From contig JAMDEN010000014.1 of NCBI GenBank assembly GCA_023487035.1, forward strand, positions 683 to 64,682: a DNA stretch of 64,000 nucleotides, in the 5' to 3' direction. The notes beneath the pieces are model-generated. The model was not told the origin of the DNA. It did no database searches and saw nothing but the letters and a program-made list of their open reading frames with translations. The position numbers were made by a program, and so were the translations under genes. Of this stretch, positions 7,045-20,544 are shown piece after piece. Source of the DNA: Actinomycetota bacterium. GTDB lineage: Bacteria; Actinomycetota; Humimicrobiia; Humimicrobiales; Humimicrobiaceae. Position 1 is the stretch's first letter; every line of letters starts with the position of its first letter.

Positions 7045-7172
7045 TAAATTTATATTAATATTAGCAAATAAAAAATTACAATATATAAATATTATAATAT
7101 TTAAAATGTAATATATTTTTTAATATTTATCAAGATTTATTAAGAAAAAAATAAAACTCTTTCTTTAAAATG

Positions 7173-7583
7173 TTAAAAATCATTAACAGTCAGAAATTCA
7201 CCTGGGGAAATTATTTGAATATCATTATACTCTTTTAAATTTAATAAGTGCTTATCTCCAGAAATAATATAACTTGCTTTACCGGCAACAGCACATTCAA
7301 TAAATTTTAAATCATCAGAATCATCAATTTCCAAATCTATCTTTTGAACCATATTAAAATACAAAATGTTTTCTTTTCTTTCAAAAATTTTAATAAATTC
7401 ATATAGTTCAGGTTCACCAGCTAAGCCAAGCCGCATTAAAACTTCTAAATATTCTTCTATTATTTCTTTTGTTAAGCAAACAACTAATTTACTTGTTTTC
7501 CATAAATCAATAATTTTCCTCGGGTTGATTGATTGCTTAAAAAAAGAAGATATAAATACATTTGTATCTATAACTACTTTCAT
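7173..7583 (-). CDS. PIN-domain toxin (VapC-like)
   Basis: 136 aa. N-terminal MKVVIDTNVFISSF, characteristic of PIN-domain toxins with acidic residues D6, E, D. 4-bp overlap with the upstream small RHH gene. Confidence 0.75.
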   Translation of the reverse strand: MKVVIDTNVFISSFFKQSINPRKIIDLWKTSKLVVCLTKEIIEEYLEVLMRLGLAGEPELYEFIKIFERKENILYFNMVQKIDLEIDDSDDLKFIECAVAGKASYIISGDKHLLNLKEYNDIQIISPGEFLTVNDF

Positions 7584-7822
7584 TTTTTTCGCACTTCTTC
7601 TATGGCTTTATCAATATCTTTTTCTGAAAACCCTTTGTTTTCAATTTTTTCTGAAATTCTTGACCATAAATCATCAATAATTTTAGAAAAATCATTTTCT
7701 GCTACAAAATCAGCCATTAACTCCCTTACTTTGTCGCTGGTTGTTTTCCCTTCCATTCTTGCTAATTTTGTAAAATCATTTTTTAGATTTTTATCAACTC
7801 TTATTATTATTTTTTCATCCAT
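7580..7822 (-). CDS. ribbon-helix-helix antitoxin (VapB/CopG-like) paired with PIN toxin
   Basis: 80 aa. IIRVDKNLKNDFTKLAR..G.T.S..VRELM pattern of an RHH beta-strand plus two helices. ATGA overlap with the PIN gene. Confidence 0.55.
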   Translation of the reverse strand: MDEKIIIRVDKNLKNDFTKLARMEGKTTSDKVRELMADFVAENDFSKIIDDLWSRISEKIENKGFSEKDIDKAIEEVRKK

Positions 7823-7934
7823 ATTGTGCCTCTTTATCGTATCATTTGTATATTACGTATATACTAATTATACAACTTATGCTCAAAAATTAAATATAAG
7901 AAAATATAAGAAATATAAAATTGTTTAAAAAATA

Positions 7935-8120
7935 TTAAAGGCTTCTTTGCAGTGTCTTAAAATCCATATATTTATTAATCGTATCTATCTGAAATTTAAT
8001 TCTAATTTTTTCATCTTTACAAAAAATTAAATCTCCATAATAAATTACAGAATATTTTAATAAAATAGATGCAGAACTTAAAATTACTAAATCAATTTTA
8101 CTGGTTTTTAAATATGACAT
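7935..8120 (-). CDS. hypothetical small protein
   Basis: ORF 7935..8132 begins with TTG. ATG at 8118-8120 gives about 61 aa (MSYLKTSKIDLVIL...). No recognisable domain. Possibly a gene remnant. Confidence 0.2.
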   Translation of the reverse strand: MSYLKTSKIDLVILSSASILLKYSVIYYGDLIFCKDEKIRIKFQIDTINKYMDFKTLQRSL

Positions 8121-8474
8121 TAAATTAGACAATATTTCAGCCTGATAACCATATTAAGCTAAAGCAGGCTAAAATGAGAACCTTAAAAAAAGAAAAGTAA
8201 GCTAAATAAGAAAAACTTTTATGATTTATGATATTGTTAATGAAAATAAAATGATAAAAAAGTAATAAGATAAAAATATGAAAAATTTATTACATAATTT
8301 AAAAATTCTTTTATAATAAAATACAAGCATTTTTACAACAAATGTAATTTTTTAAAGAATGAAATTAAAGGGCTTGTTTTAAAGCTATATAATGATTTAA
8401 TAGAACTTTTTTAATTAAAATAATAAGTAATTATTTTTCATTAATATTGTTGATAGTAGATTGAAAGGAAATTC

Positions 8475-11400
8475 GTGGCAAGATCAACTGTTCATTATAC
8501 TGATAATGAAACAAATAATATCTTAAAAAGGCTTCACAATAAATTAAGACCTGCTGGTACCCCTGTTCAAAGGGTTGAATATATTATCGAACTTTTACTT
8601 CTTCGTATTTTTGAAATCAAATTAAAGCAGGATGAAGATTTTATACCTTTAAGAAGTCTTTTTGAAGGTGAGAATTATCAATTATTATTTTCTCATCTTG
8701 TAAGTATTCCGGGAGAACAAATAAAAATTTACCTTAATAAAAATATTTTTCCCTTTTATGCCCAAATTTTATCTAAAGCGAGAAGTGTATTTAAAGAAAA
8801 TTTACCACAAAAAGTTCAGGATAATTTAGTTTTAATTGAAGAAGTATTTGCCAATTCCAGCTTTTCAACCAATGTTCAAAGTGGTAATATGACTGAAATT
8901 ATTGGACTTGTTTCAGATATTGATGAGAATACTATTTTAAGAACTGATATTTTAGGCGATGCTATAGAATCAGCACTTTCTGAAACGGGAGGTACACAGG
9001 ATATAGGACTTTTTAGAACTCCTGAGCATATTCGCCAGATGATGGTTGCATTAGCCAATCCTACTTTCGAAGATACAATATTTGACCCTGCCTGTGGAAC
9101 AGGGGGTTTTCTTTTTGATGCTTATCATTATGTTTTAGAAAAGATTACTAAAGATGGAAAATGGCCGTCTTCAAAATTTCCACCATCTCATCCTGAATTA
9201 AATGAATATTTCAAGAAATACTTTATAAAATTTAATGAACCAATACCAGATATCGATACTGCCAATAGATTTTATCGCGAAGGAGTTAGTGGAATTGAAT
9301 ATTTGGGAATGATAAGGAAGATGGCGGCAATCAATCTTTATATTCGAGGTTTAAATCCGGCAAATATTATCCAAGGGGATTCTTTACAACGCTTTAACCC
9401 TGCACTTGATATGGAATCAAAGACTTTGATATTAAGTAATCCTCCTTTTGGTGCAGAAAGAGACCAACCAGCATATCCGAATATTTGGCAGGAATATGCA
9501 AAGGAGTCTGAAACAACAATTTTATTTGTAAAATTAATGTTTGATTTGCTTAAAAAAGGCGGTAGGTGTGCAGTTGTAGTGTCAGAAGGATTTTTAACCT
9601 GGGATAAAGCATCTGCAAGAGCAATGAGAAAAATTCTTTTAGAAGAGGCAAATTTAAGAGCAATTATTAGTGTTCCTCAAGGTGTTTTTGTCAGCAAGCA
9701 AGGCCAGGGTGCAAAAACCTCTATTTTATACTTTGAAAAAGGTGAACCTACTAAGTGGGTATGGTATTACAAGATTGAAAATGATGGCTTCTCAATGGGG
9801 GTGAATAGAAAACCTATTGAGGGATGCCAAATTCCAGAGATAATTGAGCTCTTTCATAATTATGTAAAACAAGGCAAAATTCCACCAGAAACAAAAAATA
9901 GTTTTATTATTCCTGCGGAATGGATAAAAACATTAGACCCGAGATTAAAAGAAAGAATAAAACAAGAAACAAAAAAAGTAATTTTGCTAAGGAATAAGGG
10001 TAAAAGAGACAAATTAGTTGAGGAGCTAGAAGAGAAAAAACAAAGAGGAAAAATAACCGATGAAATAATAAAAGAAAAACTCTGGCAGTTTGATAATGTT
10101 TTAGAAAACAAAATTAAAAATGAAATATCAAAGCAGATAGAGAAATCGCACCTTTATTCTTTCAATCTTCAGACATATAGAAGCGATCTAACTGATGAGC
10201 AAATCAAAGAATGGCAGAAAGCTTTAAAGAATATTGAGCCAAAAAATAATTCAACTTTGGATGAAAAATACCAGATGCTAAAAACTGCTGATGAAAAATT
10301 AGCTCTTCAATTAATAGCTTCTTTAAACCCAAAAAGTGCCATTGAAATGGACATAGCACATGAGTTTGTAGGAGCAAATCATGAATTGCATATATTTAGA
10401 AGTTTGAATGAGATATTGAAGAAAAGACATAGATATCCAAAAGAAAAACTTGAGAATCTTTTAATACCTAAATATGAAAAAATTGCCAAAGAAGACTACA
10501 AAGGCGATTTTGAGATAATTGAAAAAATAGATTTTGCAAAAGGGCAAATATATTTTAGAAAAGAAAAGCTGACAGGAATGGATCTTTATAAAGCAAATAC
10601 TGGGGATTTAATAACTTCAAAAATTAATCTTTATCAAGGTGCTATCACAATTGCTCCAATTGATTTGGTTTGTTCAACACATTATCAAGTTTATGAGATA
10701 AATACTCAAAAAATACTGCCAAAATATATGTTTTATGTTTTGAGATCAAAGAAATTTTTAGAACCAATTGCAGAGCAAAGAAGCCAAGGTATTAAAAATG
10801 AACAAGGACCAAAGTTTTTGTTAGATTTTTCAATCCCACTTCCCCCTCTTGAGGTTCAGCAACAGATTGTAGAACAAATTGAAAGGCAAAAAGCTATCAT
10901 TGAGGGTGCAGAAAAGATTTTGGAGAACTGGGAGGTAGATATAAATAGATTTTATGGTGAACAATTTGAATTCAGAGAGATTTTCAAAACTCAATATGGC
11001 TATACTGCCTCGGGAACTAATTATGGGGAATTTCGGCTGATTAGGATTACAGACATAAATAGATATGGACAATTAATTGAAGAAAATAAAATGTATGTAA
11101 ATACAATTAGCGAAGCCGATAAACAAATATATATGCTGAAAAAGGGAGATATTTTGATTGCAAGGACAGGAGCTACTTTTGGAAAAATGCTTTATTTTGA
11201 TAAAGATGAAAAGGCGATTTTTGGTTCATATTTGATTAGGTTAATACCTAAGATAAAAATAAATTCTAAATATATATGGTATTACTCATTTTCTATGTCT
11301 TATTGGAAACAAGCTAAAGAATTGGTCGAAGGAGGAACTCAACCTCAATTTAATGCAAATAAAATCATCAAAATAAAAATCCCTATTCCTCCTCTTGAAA

Positions 11401-11522
11401 TCCAAAAACAAATTATTGAAGAATTGGACAAAGAGATGGGGGTATTAGAAAAAGTCAAATTCCTTAAACAAAAAGCCGAAAAAAGAATTGAGGAGATTTT
11501 AGAAAAAGCATGGGGAGAATAA
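8475..11522 (+). CDS. fused type I restriction-modification methyltransferase-specificity protein (HsdM domain + two HsdS target-recognition domains)
   Basis: 1015 aa. GTG start 5 nt after AAAGGAA. HsdM_N-like N-terminus. N6-adenine MTase motif I DPACGTGGFL and motif IV NPPFG. Coiled-coil linker. Two TRD-like halves, each ending in the HsdS conserved-region pattern (PLPPLEVQQQIVEQIE.., PIPPLEIQKQIIEELD..). Confidence 0.8.
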   Translation: MARSTVHYTDNETNNILKRLHNKLRPAGTPVQRVEYIIELLLLRIFEIKLKQDEDFIPLRSLFEGENYQLLFSHLVSIPGEQIKIYLNKNIFPFYAQILSKARSVFKENLPQKVQDNLVLIEEVFANSSFSTNVQSGNMTEIIGLVSDIDENTILRTDILGDAIESALSETGGTQDIGLFRTPEHIRQMMVALANPTFEDTIFDPACGTGGFLFDAYHYVLEKITKDGKWPSSKFPPSHPELNEYFKKYFIKFNEPIPDIDTANRFYREGVSGIEYLGMIRKMAAINLYIRGLNPANIIQGDSLQRFNPALDMESKTLILSNPPFGAERDQPAYPNIWQEYAKESETTILFVKLMFDLLKKGGRCAVVVSEGFLTWDKASARAMRKILLEEANLRAIISVPQGVFVSKQGQGAKTSILYFEKGEPTKWVWYYKIENDGFSMGVNRKPIEGCQIPEIIELFHNYVKQGKIPPETKNSFIIPAEWIKTLDPRLKERIKQETKKVILLRNKGKRDKLVEELEEKKQRGKITDEIIKEKLWQFDNVLENKIKNEISKQIEKSHLYSFNLQTYRSDLTDEQIKEWQKALKNIEPKNNSTLDEKYQMLKTADEKLALQLIASLNPKSAIEMDIAHEFVGANHELHIFRSLNEILKKRHRYPKEKLENLLIPKYEKIAKEDYKGDFEIIEKIDFAKGQIYFRKEKLTGMDLYKANTGDLITSKINLYQGAITIAPIDLVCSTHYQVYEINTQKILPKYMFYVLRSKKFLEPIAEQRSQGIKNEQGPKFLLDFSIPLPPLEVQQQIVEQIERQKAIIEGAEKILENWEVDINRFYGEQFEFREIFKTQYGYTASGTNYGEFRLIRITDINRYGQLIEENKMYVNTISEADKQIYMLKKGDILIARTGATFGKMLYFDKDEKAIFGSYLIRLIPKIKINSKYIWYYSFSMSYWKQAKELVEGGTQPQFNANKIIKIKIPIPPLEIQKQIIEELDKEMGVLEKVKFLKQKAEKRIEEILEKAWGE

Positions 11523-13876
11523 AAAATAAATCAGGACAAGACATGATTAAAAGAATTAAAAAAATCAAAAATATAGCAGTTTTTAAGGATTTTAATTGGG
11601 ATTCAAATATTATTCCTGATTTTAAAAAGTATAATGCTTTTTACGGTTGGAATGGAACCGGTAAAACTACGATTGCTAGAATTTTGTCTACTTTTGAAAA
11701 ATGCGAATTAGGTAAACTTGAATTAGACGATGATTCACTCTGTGTTATTGAAATAGACAATAGTACATTAAAGTTATCAAAAAATGATCCTATTCCGGAT
11801 TTACTTAAAAATAATATAAGGGTTTTTAACGAAGATTTTGTAAATGAGAATCTTGATTGGGTAGAAGGAAGGGCTTCAAAAATTTTAATAATGGGTAAAG
11901 AACAGAAAAAACAGAGGGAAACATTAGATTCAATAATATATAAGTTAGGAAATAAAAATAATGATCTTAAAATGAAAGAGCAAGAAAATAGCAATATTAA
12001 AAAAGAGAAAAACAATATTTTAGAAAAAGCAAGAAATGAAATAAAAGAAAATTTAAGAGAGGTTAATGATATAAAGCCTAAAAGTGGCCGAGCAACTGAC
12101 TATATAAACTATACTGTAGTAGATGTTGAAAATATATTAATAAAAAGTGATGAAGTTATATTAATTAAAGATGATGAGATGTTACAGCTCAAAAATTCAT
12201 TAAAAGAAAAGGAAACAAAGGAGCTTATTGAAGATATAGAAATTCATTTGGGGTGGATTCATAGCATTATAGAGAAATCAAAAAAGATATTTGAAACCAT
12301 CATCCCGGATGAAGGTTTAAGATTATTATCAAATTTAGGAAATATTGATGAAAAATTAAAAGAATGGTTAAGAGTTGGCTATGAGATTCATAAAGAAAAA
12401 CAACATCCAGTTATATGTGAATTTTGCAAAAACGAAATTCCAGAAAAGAGAATCGAAAAATTAGGAGAGTATTTTAGCGATGTTTTAATAAATTTGATTA
12501 AAAATATCGACCAAATTACTAAAGATATCTTACGGAATGAACTTCAAAACTTTCAATTAAAAAAAGAAAAATTTTATAGTGAATTTCAAAATGAGTTTTT
12601 GAATTTAAGCAATATATTCAATCAGCAAGAAAATATAATTAGGCAAGAATTAGATAAAATCAAAAAGATACTAGCAGAAAAGAAAAATAATTCTTCACAA
12701 AAAATTATTTTTGATTTTAATATTCTTAACAAATCCATTACAGGTTTAGAAAATATTATTATTCAGATAAATAGCCTGATTAAAAAGAATAATGAAAAAA
12801 CTAATTCATTTAAAGAAAAACGGGCTGAATATGCACATAATTTAGAATCAGCCATTATTAACAAATATAAACCTGATTATGATGAAAAAGAGAAGAGGTT
12901 AAATGAATTGTGGACGGATATAAAATCATTAAGCAAAGAAATAGAAGAATTAAAAACAAATCAAAATAATATTGAGCGAAACCTTAAAAAACATTATTTT
13001 GCTGCTGAAGAATTTAATAATTTATTGAGATTTTTTTTGGGAAGAAGTGAGATAAGTTTAGAAACGGTGGAAGATGGTTATTTAATAAAAAGAAATGGGA
13101 AAGTTGCAAGTAATTTAAGTGAAAGTGAAAAAAATACAATAGCACTAATTTATTTTCTAATTAAATTAGATGAAGAAAATTTTGATTCTAAAAATGGAAT
13201 AATTGTGATAGATGACCCCGTTTCAAGTTTTGACTCTCAATATCTTTATGGTGCTTTTGCATTTATAAAAGAAAAAGTTAAAGAATTAAATCCACAACAA
13301 GTTTTTATTTTTACCCATAATTTTCCGTTTTTCAGACTTGTTAGAGATTGGATGAAATATGAATATTCTAGAAAAACTTGGGATAAGTTGCCATTTTATA
13401 TGATAAAATCCAAATTAAATGCTACTGGGCGCTATTCTACTTTAGATAAAATAGACAAATTATTAAATGAATATAACTCCGAATATTCTTATTTATTCAA
13501 AAAGATTTATAATAGGGCTAATACTCAAGATAGCAGTTTAGATGATGATTATATTTTCCCCAATGCGATAAGAAAATTTTTAGAGAATTATATTTCATTT
13601 AAAGTACCAATTAGTGGTATAAATATTCATGAGAAACTTAAAAATTTGTGTAATGACTATTATTCACTTATTGAACCGAAAATAAAAACACAAATAGAAT
13701 CTTATTGTCAAGACCAATCCCATCCTTTATATCAAGATAGTCCTATTGATTTTGATGAGAGATTACTTGGTGAAATACAAGAAATATGTTCAGCAATAAT
13801 TGAATTGGTAAAAAAAACAGATCCAAAGCATTATCAAAATTTATTGAAAGAATGTGGATTTAGTAATAATGAGTAA
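11510..13876 (+). CDS. AAA_13-family ABC-type ATPase with long coiled-coil and CxxC hook (RloC/PrrC-like candidate abortive-infection anticodon nuclease)
   Basis: 788 aa. Overlaps the hsdMS stop by 13 nt. Walker A GWNGTGKTT (aa 46-54). About 400-aa coiled-coil insert with C303-x2-C306 near its midpoint. Signature-like LSESEKNTIALIYFL. Walker B/D-loop IIVIDDPVSSFD. H-loop FIFTHN. C-terminal domain with FPNAIRKFLENYISFKVP...H. Confidence 0.6.
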   Translation: MGRIKNKSGQDMIKRIKKIKNIAVFKDFNWDSNIIPDFKKYNAFYGWNGTGKTTIARILSTFEKCELGKLELDDDSLCVIEIDNSTLKLSKNDPIPDLLKNNIRVFNEDFVNENLDWVEGRASKILIMGKEQKKQRETLDSIIYKLGNKNNDLKMKEQENSNIKKEKNNILEKARNEIKENLREVNDIKPKSGRATDYINYTVVDVENILIKSDEVILIKDDEMLQLKNSLKEKETKELIEDIEIHLGWIHSIIEKSKKIFETIIPDEGLRLLSNLGNIDEKLKEWLRVGYEIHKEKQHPVICEFCKNEIPEKRIEKLGEYFSDVLINLIKNIDQITKDILRNELQNFQLKKEKFYSEFQNEFLNLSNIFNQQENIIRQELDKIKKILAEKKNNSSQKIIFDFNILNKSITGLENIIIQINSLIKKNNEKTNSFKEKRAEYAHNLESAIINKYKPDYDEKEKRLNELWTDIKSLSKEIEELKTNQNNIERNLKKHYFAAEEFNNLLRFFLGRSEISLETVEDGYLIKRNGKVASNLSESEKNTIALIYFLIKLDEENFDSKNGIIVIDDPVSSFDSQYLYGAFAFIKEKVKELNPQQVFIFTHNFPFFRLVRDWMKYEYSRKTWDKLPFYMIKSKLNATGRYSTLDKIDKLLNEYNSEYSYLFKKIYNRANTQDSSLDDDYIFPNAIRKFLENYISFKVPISGINIHEKLKNLCNDYYSLIEPKIKTQIESYCQDQSHPLYQDSPIDFDERLLGEIQEICSAIIELVKKTDPKHYQNLLKECGFSNNE

Positions 13877-13930
13877 TTATCATGATCCTTAAAGAAACCG
13901 CATAAACATATTTAAGAGGAGTTGTGAGTT

Positions 13931-14974
13931 TTGCTAGTAAAAAAATCAAAAAATAACCTTACTGATAATCAAGCAGAGAAAACCGAAGATTCTGGCATTG
14001 TTATTTATCAAACAAATGATGGTAAAGTTGAATTAGATGTGAAACTTGAGAAAGAGACACTGTGGTTAACGCTTAATCAGATGGCTTTACTTTTTCAGAG
14101 AGACAAATCAGTTATATCAAGACATATAAAAAATATATATAAAACAGAAGAGTTAAATAAAAAATCAACTGTTGCATTTTTTGCAACAGTTCAAAATGAA
14201 GGTGGCAGACTTATTCAAAGACAAATGGAATATTACAATCTAGATATGATTATTTCTGTGGGCTATCGGGTAAATTCAAAGCAAGGTACTCAATTCCGTA
14301 TCTGGGCAACTAAGGTTTTGAAAGATTATCTTGTCCAAGGTTACGTCATAAATCAAAAAAAACTTCTGGAACAAACTGAGAAATTCGAGTTGCTGCAAAA
14401 TACTATAAATTTTTTAAAAAATAAATCTATATATCCTGAACTGCATGATAAAACAGAAGAACTTTTAAGCTTTCTTGAAGATTATTCAAAATCGCTTACT
14501 ATTCTAAATCAATACGATAGCGGTGAAATTTCTTTAGTTAAAGGATATAAACCAACTTATAAGATAACTTATAAAAAATGCGAGCAGTTGATACAAGAGG
14601 TAAAAATAAGTCTCATGCAGAAAAATGAGGCTACTGATTTATTTGGTAAAGAAATAAATAATAAACTTAAAAGTATAATTGGGGCAATTTATCAAACATT
14701 TAACAAAAAAGACTTGTATCCAAGTATTGAGGAAAAGGCAGCAAATTTATTGTATTTAATAATTAAAGACCATCCATTTGTTGATGGTAATAAGCGAATT
14801 GGTTCACTGCTTTTTTTACATTTCCTTGCAAAGAATAATTATTTATTAAAAAACAGTGGGGAAAGAAAAATTAATGATAACACTATTATTGCACTTGCTT
14901 TATTAATTGCTATAAGTTTGCCAGTTGAAAAAGATATTATGATTAAAATTATTACAAATTTGTTAATAGGATAA
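13931..14974 (+). CDS. RhuM-family protein with Fic/Doc (Fido) domain, Doc-type motif
   Basis: 347 aa. N-terminal RhuM-like region (IVIYQTNDGKVELDV..ETLWLTLNQMALLFQRDKSVISRHIKNI). C-terminal Fido motif HPFVDGNKRIG (Doc-type HxFx[DN][AG]NKR) at nt 14771-14803. TTG start at 13931 after AAGAGGAG. Confidence 0.75.
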   Translation: MLVKKSKNNLTDNQAEKTEDSGIVIYQTNDGKVELDVKLEKETLWLTLNQMALLFQRDKSVISRHIKNIYKTEELNKKSTVAFFATVQNEGGRLIQRQMEYYNLDMIISVGYRVNSKQGTQFRIWATKVLKDYLVQGYVINQKKLLEQTEKFELLQNTINFLKNKSIYPELHDKTEELLSFLEDYSKSLTILNQYDSGEISLVKGYKPTYKITYKKCEQLIQEVKISLMQKNEATDLFGKEINNKLKSIIGAIYQTFNKKDLYPSIEEKAANLLYLIIKDHPFVDGNKRIGSLLFLHFLAKNNYLLKNSGERKINDNTIIALALLIAISLPVEKDIMIKIITNLLIG

Positions 14975-14976
14975 TT

Positions 14977-17352
14977 ATGAATCTTAATGAAGCAACATCA
15001 ACTGATTTAAAGATAATAAACGAACTTCAGAAAATTGGCTGGAAACCAGGAGATACTCTACTTTATCAGCCAGAATATAAATTGACTGAAGACCAACAAA
15101 AAGAATTTTCTGGACATAAAAGTATTAAACCAGATGTTGTCCTCCAGGATTTACACGGTAATGTTTTAGCTGTTTTTGAAAATAAGCTTGAAAACGAGAA
15201 AAAAGCGTTAACCAAATTAAGAACTTTATATTGGCGTGTTTTAAAACCAAGATTTTTATACGCTTGTTCATCCGAAAGAATACTTTTTTATGATACTTGT
15301 TGGCGTGGACTGGAAGCAGGTGATTTCAGACGAGTTGACGGTTTTATGACACTGGAAGAAATGCTTTTAAAAATTGAGCAAGAAAAACAAAAGAATTTAC
15401 AAAGAGAAATTATTATTGATAAGGCAATAATTGGTGGTTATGACCCAGTAGTTGGTAAGGAAAGATATTTTCAGACTGAATGCGTTCAAACTTTGGTTGA
15501 AAAATATAAACAAGGAAAACAAAAAATGCTTGTGCATATGGCAACAGGTCTTGGAAAAACAAGGATAGCTGTTGCTTTTACAAAAGCATTATTACAGTAT
15601 GGACTTGCAAAAAGAGTTTTATTTGTGGTTGATAGAATTATACTTGCAGAACAAGCTCGTAATGAGGGATTTAGTTTGATTAATAAAGATTTTCATTGTG
15701 CCTGGGTTAAAAGTTCAAATTATAAACAATACAGAAATTATAATATCCATATTGTTGTTATTGATACTTTAGAGAATATTTTTCAGGAAATTCCCAATAC
15801 CTTTTATGATTTGATTATCGTTGATGAATGCCATCGTTCAATAAATATTAACCGTAAGTTGATTTTTGATCATTTTTTATGTCCAAGAGTAGGTTTAACT
15901 GCTACGCCAAAAAAGGCGATTTTAGCAAAAGATGCTAAAGATATTTCAGAAGAAGATTTAGAGATTTTAGACACTTATAAACTTTTTGGATGTGAAACAA
16001 ACGAACCAGATTATCAATTTGATTTATCCCATGGAATTGATGAAGGATTTTTAGCCCCATACAAAGTTTTGGAAATAAAAACCCAACTTACTAAGGAAGC
16101 AGAAGAAAAGGGAATTGAATTTGATTATGTTTTTGATCCTGACACAAGAAAAAAGATTGAATTAGATAAGACAAAAAAGATTTGGCTTGAACAACTTGAA
16201 AAGAAATACTTATCGGAAGAAAGAGCTTTAAGAATTGCTGAAGAAATCAAGAAAAATACTCAATATGGTGAAAAGATGATTTTATTTGGAGCAAGTCAAG
16301 CACATTGTATTATTCTTGCTGATGCCATTAACAAAGTTTTTAGTGATAATGGAGAAATTGCCCCAAAATATGCTGAGGCAATTATTTCAGATAATAGTAA
16401 TATAAATGATACTTTAAAAGAATGGTTTAAAAATCCAAATAGAAAACCATATATTGTAGCTTCAGTTGATATTATGACTACAGGAGTAGATATACCTTGT
16501 GTAAGATTTATCGGTTTTGTTACATTAACCAAATCTGTAGGAAAATATATTCAAATGCTTGGAAGAGGTACAAGACTTGATCCAAAATCAGGTAAGTTTA
16601 GCTTTACCATCTTAGATTTTGTAGGACTTTGCAAAAAGATGGAAGATAATGGAAAAGGTACACTAAAACCAAATATAAAAATTGTAAAAGAGTCAAAGAA
16701 CATCTTAAAAGGATGGGCTGAAAAAATAGGAGAAACTCCTATTAATTGGGTTTTTATACCTAATCCTGATCCTGCAAATATGATTCAAAGGGTTTGGGTT
16801 CATGAGCGAGGTATTAAAATTATAGATAATATCCCGATAGAAGAAGCAAAAAAGTTATTTGAAGAAGAGGCACAGAAAATCACAAGAGATGATATATTAT
16901 CATTGCAACAAAAAGTTAAAGAAAATCCAAAATATGAACCTACTGATAGCGATTTAGAAATTATAAAAGAATGGGCAAAAAATCCTGAAATATATCTTGA
17001 TGAAGAACAACTTAAAAGGATATACAATTATCCTCAAGGAAATATCTGGGATTTCTTTTTACATGCTACTGGAGTTAAAAGTATACCAACACTTGAAGAA
17101 AGGATAGAAAAAGGATTTGAAGAATTTATTAAAGCTTACAATTTCACTAATGACGAGCAGGTAAGAATTCTTGAAAGAATAAAAAATATTTTAGCTAAAA
17201 ATTATATAAATAATAAAAGATTATCTTCTAATGATATATTCTCCTCGCCCATTTATGAACAGATTGTTGGTAGAAAAGAAGAATTAGATAAAGTATTTCA
17301 AAATAGATTTTCTGAAATTTTAAAATATCTCGAAGAATCAATTAAAATTTAA
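14977..17352 (+). CDS. HsdR-like restriction endonuclease subunit (N-terminal PD-(D/E)xK nuclease + SF2 helicase), short form
   Basis: 791 aa. N-terminal KPDVVL...VFENKLE (PD...ExK). Helicase motif I MATGLGKTRIA, motif II IIVDECHR, motif III TATP, motif VI QMLGRGTR. Immediately follows the RhuM gene (stop/start separated by 2 nt). Confidence 0.8.
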   Translation: MNLNEATSTDLKIINELQKIGWKPGDTLLYQPEYKLTEDQQKEFSGHKSIKPDVVLQDLHGNVLAVFENKLENEKKALTKLRTLYWRVLKPRFLYACSSERILFYDTCWRGLEAGDFRRVDGFMTLEEMLLKIEQEKQKNLQREIIIDKAIIGGYDPVVGKERYFQTECVQTLVEKYKQGKQKMLVHMATGLGKTRIAVAFTKALLQYGLAKRVLFVVDRIILAEQARNEGFSLINKDFHCAWVKSSNYKQYRNYNIHIVVIDTLENIFQEIPNTFYDLIIVDECHRSININRKLIFDHFLCPRVGLTATPKKAILAKDAKDISEEDLEILDTYKLFGCETNEPDYQFDLSHGIDEGFLAPYKVLEIKTQLTKEAEEKGIEFDYVFDPDTRKKIELDKTKKIWLEQLEKKYLSEERALRIAEEIKKNTQYGEKMILFGASQAHCIILADAINKVFSDNGEIAPKYAEAIISDNSNINDTLKEWFKNPNRKPYIVASVDIMTTGVDIPCVRFIGFVTLTKSVGKYIQMLGRGTRLDPKSGKFSFTILDFVGLCKKMEDNGKGTLKPNIKIVKESKNILKGWAEKIGETPINWVFIPNPDPANMIQRVWVHERGIKIIDNIPIEEAKKLFEEEAQKITRDDILSLQQKVKENPKYEPTDSDLEIIKEWAKNPEIYLDEEQLKRIYNYPQGNIWDFFLHATGVKSIPTLEERIEKGFEEFIKAYNFTNDEQVRILERIKNILAKNYINNKRLSSNDIFSSPIYEQIVGRKEELDKVFQNRFSEILKYLEESIKI

Positions 17353-17548
17353 ATTTTATGAAAATCAAGAATTTAATAAATTCAGAATAATATTGGTCTG
17401 GTTAGATAATCTGGCTTATATATTCTTTTAATTAAGCAATTTCTAATATATCATTAATTTAATTATAAGCTTAATTGTAAACTTAAAATTTAGATCGTAA
17501 TTTAGATCGCAAAAACATTTATTTTGTACAAATAAAATATTAAAAATT

Positions 17549-18130
17549 ATGACTCAATACGAAAGAAAAATAGCAGCTATAAATAAAATTTTAAATTCAG
17601 CTGAAAATTACATTAAAAAAAATGGAATAAATTCTTTAGACATTAATGAAATTTGTAAAGAAGCTGGCCTCACAAAAGGTGCATTTTACCATCATTTTAA
17701 AAATAAACAGCACCTTTTACTGGAGCTACTTAACAGGTGGATAAATAAAGTCTCATCACAAGTTGAAATTCCAATATCAGGTGATTTTAATACAACTGAA
17801 CTTATATTTTATATTATTGAAAAAATGTCTCCTTCATTTGAGCAGGCTGAAAGCCAACTGCCAATTTTTCTGGAATTATATATTAAAGCCATAAGTGATA
17901 AAAATTTAAAAAAATATGTATTAAAATCCTATAACAGCTTCCTTGATTTTTTTAGTGATTTATTAAAAGAAGGTATGTCAAAAGGATATATTAAAAAAGA
18001 AAATCCGACACAAGTAGCGAAAATACTTTTTTCAATTACTTTAGGGCTTTTGATTCAAGGATTAATCGATCCCTCTGGAGAAAACTGGAATGAGTTAGCA
18101 AAAAAAAGTGTAAGAATGCTTTTATCTTAA
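17549..18130 (+). CDS. TetR/AcrR-family transcriptional regulator
   Basis: 193 aa. N-terminal HTH (INEICKEAGLTKGAFYHHFKNKQHLLLEL). Confidence 0.75.
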   Translation: MTQYERKIAAINKILNSAENYIKKNGINSLDINEICKEAGLTKGAFYHHFKNKQHLLLELLNRWINKVSSQVEIPISGDFNTTELIFYIIEKMSPSFEQAESQLPIFLELYIKAISDKNLKKYVLKSYNSFLDFFSDLLKEGMSKGYIKKENPTQVAKILFSITLGLLIQGLIDPSGENWNELAKKSVRMLLS

Positions 18131-18453
18131 TATCCTTATCTTCTCTTATTTTATCTTATCTTAATCATTTTACTTTATATTCTTTTATCTTATTTTTTTA
18201 TATAATCTTACTTTATCTTATCTAAAAATATTAAAAATAAAATTTTTGAGAATGTCTAAAAAACCGCCTATTATAAGTTTTTAATATTTCCTGATATTTC
18301 CTTTTTTTATTAGTCTCAGATGTATAAATTTCTTTTTTTCTAAATAATTTCACAAAAATTTTTTGAATTTTTTAATTAAAATATATTGATATTTATATTT
18401 ACATACCTTAAGATTGTATTAATATTTAAATTTATTAAAAGAAAGGAGTAAAA

Positions 18454-20041: not shown

Positions 20042-20287
20042 ATGGCTGAGAATAAAAAAATATGTAAAAATATAGATCCTAAAGTTATTGCATATATTGC
20101 AGGTGGGGCTGTTGCGGGCGGAATAGTTGGCTATATCATACATAAAGTTGGTTTTAAAAATGTGGCAAAGATTTTAAAAGATAAAAATATAATCTCTTCA
20201 GGTATTGGTGACTTTATAAAAGATTTTGATTTAAAATCTTTTACTTCAAAAAATAATAAGGATTTTGAAGATTTAGAAGAGGATTAA
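20042..20287 (+). CDS. hypothetical small protein with one Gly/Ala-rich TM segment
   Basis: 81 aa. SD GGAGG 8 nt upstream of ATG. VIAYIAGGAVAGGIVGYIIH hydrophobic segment. No recognisable domain. Confidence 0.3.
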   Translation: MAENKKICKNIDPKVIAYIAGGAVAGGIVGYIIHKVGFKNVAKILKDKNIISSGIGDFIKDFDLKSFTSKNNKDFEDLEED

Positions 20288-20544
20288 GGAATGTCTATTT
20301 GCATTTCCTTGTGAATATTCGATTCGCTTATCCTCGAGAGAAGCTCTTTAAGTTCATACTCTTCTGTCTCAACAGGTGATATAACTATTTGCTTATTTTC
20401 AACTTTAATTTCTACAGCTGAGTTCTCCTTAAGCTTTAGCTCCTTAATGTAAGCATTTGGCAGTCTTAATCCAAGACTATTACCCCATTTTTGAATTTTA
20501 GTTATCAAATTAAATAGTTTGTATGTGTTAATTAATATATACAA
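20284..20544 (-). CDS. AbrB/MazE/SpoVT-type (swapped-hairpin) antitoxin-like protein, apparently orphan
   Basis: IQKWGNSLGLRLP motif typical of MazE/PemI/ChpS-type antitoxins. True start probably downstream of the annotated one. No toxin gene adjacent. Confidence 0.5.
   Translation of the reverse strand: MYILINTYKLFNLITKIQKWGNSLGLRLPNAYIKELKLKENSAVEIKVENKQIVISPVETEEYELKELLSRISESNIHKEMQIDIP

Follow-up and report, generated by a model that had tools for sequence, protein, structure and literature searches.

The third gene of a type I restriction-modification (R-M) operon, located at 13931..14974 in a stretch of 64,000 nucleotides from an Actinomycetota bacterium (contig JAMDEN010000014.1; hereafter the window), encodes a protein of 347 residues in which the N-terminal part of a RhuM protein is fused to a Doc-type Fido domain. 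On balance this protein, called RhuM-Doc here, is probably a toxin that acts autonomously, combines a sensor and a kinase in one chain and serves abortive infection; it belongs to PDC-S23, a large family that PADLOC lists among its phage-defence candidates. An earlier note, made from the letters of the window, had described a RhuM-family gene with a Doc-type Fido motif inside an R-M operon, and the open reading frame (ORF), the motif and the Pfam and NCBIfam matches all agree with that description. All three PDC-S23 models of PADLOC match RhuM-Doc over residues 20-345 of 347 (E=4.7e-127 to 9.5e-116), and many PDC-S05 models of the same collection match its N-terminal 130-200 residues, including residues 20-150. 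The two Pfam hidden Markov models (HMMs) that the note had proposed as a check were both found: Virulence_RhuM (PF13310) matches residues 79-188 with E=7.7e-27 and 94.6 bits against a gathering threshold of 33.7, and Fic matches residues 219-299 with E=1.6e-12. These are accompanied by NCBIfam TIGR01550 DOC_P1 (residues 224-316, 46.3 bits, above the curated cut-off of 38.65) and by PHROG 577, 'Doc-like toxin' (E=2e-16). The HMM evidence for both domains is independent of the active-site motif. The gene, which like the other genes of the operon lies on the forward strand, starts with TTG and ends with TAA at 14972-14974; a Shine-Dalgarno-like sequence, AAGAGGAG (13913..13920), can be read 10 nt 5' of the start, and the TTG start is further supported by the sister strain described below, in which ATG occupies the same position.

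The Doc-type Fido domain occupies residues 213-347 (14567..14971). In an AlphaFold2 (AF2) model built from 63 sequences (mean predicted local distance difference test score, pLDDT, 72; predicted TM-score, pTM, 0.51), residues 211-340 are predicted with a pLDDT of about 77-91 to form the all-alpha Fido core fold. The best matches to this model in a Foldseek search of the PDB are chains of P1 Doc (3k33_A, prob 1.00, TM-score 0.66 normalised to Doc, root mean square deviation 3.2 Å over 126 columns), the family profile aligns HPFVDGNKR of RhuM-Doc to HIFNDANKR of P1 Doc, and it also matches PDB entry 9vzc, a 'death-on-curing family protein', with E=2.4e-5. The motif comprises residues 281-289, and its codons at 14771..14797 read CAT CCA TTT GTT GAT GGT AAT AAG CGA; the note had placed it correctly, the only slip being the trivial one that the additional 'IG' it quoted extends to 14803. 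The pattern H.F.[DN][AG]NKR has this single match in the six-frame translation of the 64-kb window, where about 2e-4 matches would be expected by chance (a rough estimate from typical residue frequencies), and looser Fic patterns match nowhere else. HxFxDGNKR, and with it the lysine that distinguishes Doc from the AMPylating Fic enzymes, is kept in 120 of the 120 closest homologues, which upholds the assignment to the Doc type made in the note, and nowhere in the protein is column entropy lower than in the active-site block (0.32 bits). In a sample of 78 ORFs with a Doc domain, taken from species-representative genomes, GNKR is present in 73, and the other five comprise the single-residue variants HPLADGNKR (two), RPLADGNKR (one) and HPFNDGCKR (one) and an uninspected fragment of 88 residues. 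The catalytic histidine is lost in only one of the four variants, and the K-R pair is present in 77 of the 78 ORFs, the exception being the fragment.

Replacement of the Fic glycine by this lysine (K73 of Doc) inverts the bound ATP and makes an AMPylase act as a kinase on EF-Tu Thr382 (PMC7180214; PMC7758455), while the AMPylation signature, HxFx(D/E)GNGRxxR, carries the glycine (PMC7758455). Because the motif is so strongly conserved throughout the family, the Doc domain of RhuM-Doc very likely has catalytic activity, and this of the kinase type, as judged from its sequence; EF-Tu would then be the candidate target by extrapolation from P1 Doc. The two proteins have in common the Fido core fold and the catalytic loop HxFx(D/N)(A/G)NKR, and RhuM-Doc passes the cut-off of the curated Doc HMM. 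They differ in that their identity is only 16-18% in the Foldseek alignments, and in that P1 Doc is accompanied by a Phd/YefM antitoxin gene, whereas RhuM-Doc carries a covalent N-terminal module of 210 residues instead. The architecture and the defence role might therefore be as proposed and the chemistry or the target different, with a phage protein, another GTPase, gyrase or topoisomerase, or nucleic acid being modified. Such an outcome seems improbable to us: that P1 Doc shares no more than the catalytic loop and the core fold, at this low identity, and that Fido enzymes modify very diverse targets (PMC7180214) would speak for it, but the Doc-specific lysine sets gamma-phosphate transfer, and EF-Tu is the only documented target of the motif class (PMC7180214; PMC7758455). 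We also considered a conserved segment, S329-x-P-x-E333-K334, as an inhibitory helix of the Fic type ([ST]xxxE[GN]); it resembles one, but by its position it forms the loop that joins the final two helices of the Doc core, and the candidate was rejected. We take this loop to be aligned with 'GEIS' of P1 Doc.

The N-terminal globular module (residues ~21-140; 13991..14350) is predicted by AF2 to consist, in this order, of two short strands, a helix-turn-helix (HTH), a beta-hairpin wing and a helix-loop-helix, the last of which corresponds to a nearly invariant block, NLDxIISVGYRVNSxxxTQFRIWAT. It is followed by two long helices (117-165 and 169-196 in the model) and a low-confidence linker, which together make up residues ~141-212 (14351..14566; pLDDT 45-70). 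The note had described the N-terminal half as RhuM-type, which is correct with the reservation that only model positions 1-111 of the 252 positions of Virulence_RhuM are aligned, the Doc domain standing in the place of the usual C-terminal domain. No Pfam family other than RhuM matches the N-terminal module, and no PDB entry matches it by sequence or, significantly, by Foldseek (best E=0.03). A Foldseek search of the predicted viral structures in BFVD, on the other hand, consistently returned antirepressors, 'regulatory proteins', KilA-N proteins and Bro-N proteins, with E-values from 3.5e-5, 17 matches at E<=1e-3 and prob 1.00. On these predicted folds, the earlier suggestion of a putative DNA-binding module is plausible, although the fold likeness finds no significant counterpart in the PDB.

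Within this module, residues 47-103 (14069..14239), which comprise the HTH helices and the wing, behave as an exchangeable cassette. In comparison with the allele of the sister strain (P0002), amino acid identity is 89% over residues 1-46, drops to 32% over residues 47-103 and returns to 88% over residues 104-212 and 91% over residues 213-347; at the nucleotide level it is 44-64% in the cassette and 82-100% elsewhere, with a shoulder of 67% directly 3' of the cassette. Across 7140 pairs formed by the 120 closest homologues, identity inside the cassette is bimodal: among pairs that are 80-90% identical outside it, 44% fall below 45% identity inside and 36% exceed 80%, and pairs that are just 50-60% identical outside reach up to 88% inside. 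The HTH-plus-wing segment is thus shuffled among alleles, like the target-recognition domains of HsdS, and therefore it is probably a specificity determinant of the protein.

The same N-terminal module is joined to at least three different C-terminal domains across RhuM proteins. Canonical RhuM proteins match PF13310 at positions 1-250, over its full length, and are recognised by PDC-S05; they share with RhuM-Doc the region up to residue ~188, where the Pfam RhuM match stops, including the NLDxIISVGYRV...TQFRxWAT block, and differ in their C-terminal domain (model positions 112-252), which is unrelated to Doc and whose place is taken by Doc in the fusion. Examples with this different C-terminal domain are the paralogues in the genomes L018, L057 and L079 and a protein of the Streptococcus satellite phage Javan66, and a RhuM protein of L062 has a third type of C-terminus. 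In L018, L057 and L079 the canonical paralogue lies within a few genes of RhuM-Doc. In Streptococcus satellite phages, canonical RhuM adjoins the integrase gene, and in Javan66 (L092, 1306-2310, reverse strand) it is located between int and the regulatory region; the satellite-phage gene bears the RAST label 'putative DNA-binding protein in cluster with Type I restriction-modification system'. Defence proteins are usually built in this way, from one shared module and effectors that vary.

A natural control is provided by a sister strain, a close relative whose contig (L003) has flanks that are 95-97% identical in nucleotide sequence to those of the window. Its R-M island (7550-9714, compared with 7150-17406 of the window) is rearranged relative to the flanks and decayed, and it has been reduced to three pieces: 74 nt of hsdMS, RhuM-Doc together with ~330 nt from the beginning of hsdR, and the final 114 nt of hsdR. 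RhuM-Doc is the sole intact gene of this island, hsdMS, the ATPase gene and most of hsdR having been lost, and the ratio of nonsynonymous to synonymous substitution rates (dN/dS) between the two alleles is 0.12 when the cassette is excluded and 0.13 for the Doc domain. RhuM-Doc is thus tolerated and maintained under purifying selection without methyltransferase, ATPase or HsdR, which makes it less likely that any of these three is its antidote and that RhuM-Doc is an R-M subunit. The island DNA shared by the two strains is ~86% identical (dS 0.44) and hence far more diverged than the flanks; this suggests that alleles have been exchanged and not simply inherited vertically.

The context of the gene across the family was examined at 76 loci in species-representative genomes of many phyla, where neighbours were typed with single-sequence phmmer searches and iterated HMMs (an insensitive procedure); to these were added a Pfam census of the 238 neighbours lying up to two genes away and an all-against-all clustering of the ORFs next to the gene. 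Apart from hsd genes, namely HsdS at four loci, HsdM at two and HsdR immediately downstream at four, no neighbour recurs. The census yielded 147 Pfam families upstream and 149 downstream, mostly singletons; downstream, type I R-M families outnumber all others, and upstream they rank with the commonest. Nevertheless, obligate co-occurrence with hsd genes was not seen: only ~10-15% of the loci (about 8-13 of 76) have hsd genes within 2-4 genes, a minority that we roughly estimate to be at least 20-fold over expectation. The recurrence of RhuM/Fic genes in hsd loci with an unproven role, as stated in the note, has already been published (PMC3710099; bioRxiv 10.1101/2024.01.29.577857), yet most members of the family, ~85-90% of the 76 loci, lie off R-M genes. 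Solo copies are found among housekeeping genes, on plasmids and, in Legionella, directly after a Tn3-family transposase. No conserved adjacent ORF or small partner was detected at the 76 loci, and no antitoxin family, including Phd/YefM, occurs among the 238 neighbours. At the window locus itself there is no adjacent Phd/YefM-type antitoxin gene; the upstream neighbour encodes an ATPase of 788 residues and the downstream neighbour is hsdR. This ATPase, which belongs to the AAA_13 type, was considered as a partner of RhuM-Doc and rejected, since it is absent from all 76 other loci, and the two are therefore independent modules.

The absence of a separate antitoxin also speaks for a different explanation, in which RhuM-Doc would be a fused toxin-antitoxin whose N-terminal module acts as Phd does, as DNA-binding autorepressor and neutraliser, and which stabilises the island, plasmid or transposon that carries it. 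We regard such an addiction or stabilisation module as rather unlikely, though it has several observations on its side: Doc is the classic plasmid-addiction toxin (PMC7180214; PMC7758455), copies of the fusion are present on conjugative plasmids and beside a Tn3-family transposase, and the gene is the sole survivor of the decayed island of the sister strain, as would be expected of a gene that is hard to lose. Three considerations stand in its way: (i) a covalent fusion cannot provide the unequal half-lives of toxin and antitoxin on which post-segregational killing depends, unless it is cleaved; (ii) many copies stand alone, surrounded by housekeeping genes and without a visible mobile element; and (iii) a variable cassette suits a diverse external cue more than self-repression.

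The arrangement of the operon raises a further possibility, that RhuM-Doc is an accessory or regulatory subunit of the type I enzyme, its N-terminal module binding DNA and its Doc domain phosphorylating HsdR or HsdM, for instance in restriction alleviation or in the timing of HsdR after acquisition of the system. The operon is organised on one strand as hsdMS, the AAA_13 ATPase gene, RhuM-Doc and hsdR, so that RhuM-Doc is third of four; the gene is embedded between HsdM/S and HsdR genes of the same strand with short gaps, lies immediately 5' of hsdR and is separated from its ATG (14977) by a 2-nt spacer, 'TT'. In four other species hsdR is likewise the next gene downstream, with gaps of 8-54 nt. 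The spacer and the operon membership were both read correctly in the note, and the co-translation that it took them to imply is plausible, given that AGGA occurs 6 nt 5' of the hsdR ATG, within the end of the RhuM-Doc gene, so that RhuM-Doc and hsdR may be translationally coupled. A 2-nt spacer, however, denotes operon membership only and is no proof of functional dependence on hsdR. Moreover, hsd genes are not nearby in ~85-90% of family members, purifying selection persists in the sister strain after hsdMS and hsdR have been destroyed, and both EcoEI/EcoAI-like and HindI-like HsdR types adjoin RhuM-Doc across the loci, and therefore the family is not tied to one enzyme. A subunit role thus appears very improbable, more so than any explanation considered so far.

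RhuM-Doc belongs to a known, widespread and already annotated family, and the arrangement seen here was described in 2013. A protein that is 100% identical is present in NCBI (MCL4385482.1 and MCL5770791.1) under the name 'virulence protein RhuM/Fic/DOC family protein'; over 8000 homologues were obtained, and a search of 1.84 billion cluster representatives (at 50% identity) returned 27,100 matches at E<=1e-3, of which 1,477 reach E<=1e-30. The metagenome-assembled genomes (MAGs) of the two identical records are labelled 'Actinobacteria bacterium' and 'Cyanobacteriota bacterium', and with the window at 29% G+C these taxonomic labels, being mutually discordant and a poor fit to AT-rich DNA, are doubtful. 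R-M neighbourhoods in which RloC- or PrrC-like ABC-HEPN proteins are combined with DOC or RhuM-like toxins were described by Anantharaman et al. (2013, Biol Direct 8:15, PMC3710099), who reported frequent fusions between RhuM and DOC and put forward the idea of a multi-level defence. The present operon resembles these 'three-level defence' neighbourhoods in its type I R-M genes, its large ABC-type ATPase of RloC-like layout and its RhuM-DOC fusion; it differs from them in that NMPylation by DOC was assumed there whereas the motif here is of the kinase type, and in that the ATPase is a PDC-S06/AAA_13 protein with no RloC or PrrC match in PADLOC. With PDC-S23, RhuM-Doc shares the full-length HMM match, the two-domain architecture, the status of a single gene and the embedding in type I R-M, the differences being that the N-terminus of this copy is 12-15 residues longer than most and that the operon also holds the PDC-S06 ATPase. 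Genes entered the PDC set through 'guilt by embedding', being located inside type I R-M, BREX or DISARM systems (bioRxiv 10.1101/2024.01.29.577857); the main text of that paper makes no mention of RhuM, Fic or S23, the PADLOC web-server paper contains no description of PDCs, and our search of the literature on RhuM since 2022 gave almost only unrelated matches. What the present analysis adds is the conservation of the motif in 120 of 120 homologues, the absence of an antitoxin-like partner, the orphan copy in the sister strain, the fold likeness of the N-terminal module and the cassette.

The word 'virulence' in the family name would make RhuM-Doc a virulence effector, an explanation to which we give almost no weight. 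The name, which derives only from Salmonella SPI-3 rhuM (PMC3710099), is all that favours it, against a distribution of the family across many phyla (Patescibacteria, Omnitrophota and Nitrospirota among them), in bacteria that are free-living or uncultured, against genomic associations that consist of R-M genes and mobile elements, and against the Pfam census, in which no secretion-related family is among the most frequent families of the 238 neighbours. Defence activity has been reported for a RhuM-domain protein and for a Fic protein. A PDC-S05 protein with a RhuM domain reduced plating of T7 and T5 on E. coli ~1000-fold and also protected against T4 (PMC12881386), and SoFic demonstrates that one Fic protein can act as defence. 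SoFic is likewise a single polypeptide with a Fido domain that has been validated in phage defence, but it represents a class II Fic-domain system, predicted to be an AMPylase and with another N-terminal region, whereas RhuM-Doc has the Doc-type lysine; accordingly, the SoFic model of PADLOC covers only 25 residues around the active site of RhuM-Doc (E=5e-4), which does not make RhuM-Doc a member of the SoFic family.

If RhuM-Doc is a sensor-plus-kinase toxin, it could operate as follows. The N-terminal module would serve as sensor and as autoinhibitor of the Doc domain, binding a nucleic acid or a phage protein with a specificity set by the cassette. Infection would cause it to release the Doc domain, which, with ATP inverted as in P1 Doc, would phosphorylate a translation GTPase, for which EF-Tu Thr382 is the precedent; the resulting stop of translation would abort the infection. 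The operon would then constitute a layered defence island in which restriction of DNA comes first and modules that shut off translation provide the backup, and RhuM-Doc, beside the RloC-like ATPase, would be cargo of the R-M operon and not a subunit of the enzyme. A narrower version, in which the exchangeable cassette decides which phage cue unlocks the Doc kinase, one protein carries out abortive infection by phosphorylating EF-Tu, and the same sensor has been placed on at least three types of effector, is offered tentatively, as a possibility that is clearly less likely than the general proposal.

Several points weigh against this proposal: (i) the autoinhibition by the N-terminal module is pure inference, the AF2 arrangement of the domains being of low confidence (pTM 0.51, linker pLDDT <50); (ii) P1 Doc itself is an addiction toxin and not a defence protein; (iii) EF-Tu as target rests on one enzyme that shares 16-18% identity; (iv) the likeness of the N-terminal module to KilA-N and Bro-N proteins is accompanied by low TM-scores of 0.3-0.5, besides the want of a significant PDB match; (v) some 85-90% of the 76 loci have no adjoining R-M genes, and most contexts contain no obvious defence genes; (vi) the PDC-S05 protein that protected E. 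coli was reported with a RhuM domain only, without a Fic/Doc domain (PMC12881386), and its anti-phage result is therefore no test of the Doc domain; and (vii) no paper mentioning PDC-S23 was found in the literature search.

The remaining genes of the operon are those of the type I system and the ATPase. The first encodes a fused HsdM-HsdS of 1015 residues (8475..11522), with Pfam N6_Mtase followed by two copies of Methylase_S and with PADLOC matches to MTase_I and Specificity_I; similar fused proteins are modelled in PADLOC. The ATPase gene (11510..13876; 788 residues; Pfam AAA_13; PADLOC PDC-S06, E=8.9e-166) overlaps hsdMS by 13 nt and is followed by a 54-nt gap before RhuM-Doc. This ABC-type protein of RloC-like layout has a Walker A motif, GWNGTGKT, at residue 46 and a Walker B motif, IIVIDD, at residue 564, and, midway along a long helical insert, a CEFC pair at residue 303 that is zinc-hook-like, as in RloC. 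Towards its C-terminus there is RKFLE at residue 688 and a histidine ~50 residues downstream, an arrangement that resembles the nuclease triad of PrrC/RloC; RloC and PrrC models are not among its PADLOC matches, and no relatives were found for it in the PDB by sequence. The last gene (14977..17352) encodes an EcoAI/EcoEI-like type I restriction subunit, HsdR, of 791 residues, identified by Pfam, NCBIfam and PADLOC. A scan of 7800-18300 for promoters and terminators found 51 promoter-like sites against 61 in shuffled sequences and no credible terminator inside the operon, a scan that is uninformative in DNA of 29% G+C. The idea that the operon is a compositionally deviant, acquired island was abandoned, as the G+C content of the island (28.9%) gives no signal against that of the window (29.1%). 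The four genes are bracketed by an imperfect inverted repeat of 41 nt (8390-8430 and 17416-17456; 80% complementary), which was discarded as an island boundary: it lies off the boundaries of the rearrangement in the sister strain and may be due to chance in AT-rich DNA.

Other differences between the two strains concern the surroundings of the operon. Directly adjoining the R-M island, at ~7173-7822 on the reverse strand, there is a PIN_3 toxin gene with an upstream ORF of 80 codons, a VapBC-like pair; in the sister strain the PIN gene is shortened to 59 residues and the 80-residue ORF is gone. At 20284-20544, also on the reverse strand, the window contains a MazE-like antitoxin gene without a PemK toxin, and the sister strain has mazE-pemK (L003, 2710-3284); a segment of 511 nt with pemK is missing from the window, the junction being at 20284-20288. 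The Vut_1 gene of the sister strain (L003, 4056-4778) is missing from the window at ~19881.

To conclude, RhuM-domain proteins form a very large family and are among the commonest passengers of type I R-M operons. Since the chemistry of its effector is predictable and testable, the Doc-fused branch represents the easiest way into the function of RhuM. The locus in the window adds little beyond a further example of the family; its value resides in this predictable effector chemistry, in the natural orphan control provided by the sister strain and in a cassette that points to the specificity surface. If the narrower version of the proposal is true, no Doc-type kinase before RhuM-Doc would have been shown to act in immunity, and the function of RhuM proteins would be accounted for.

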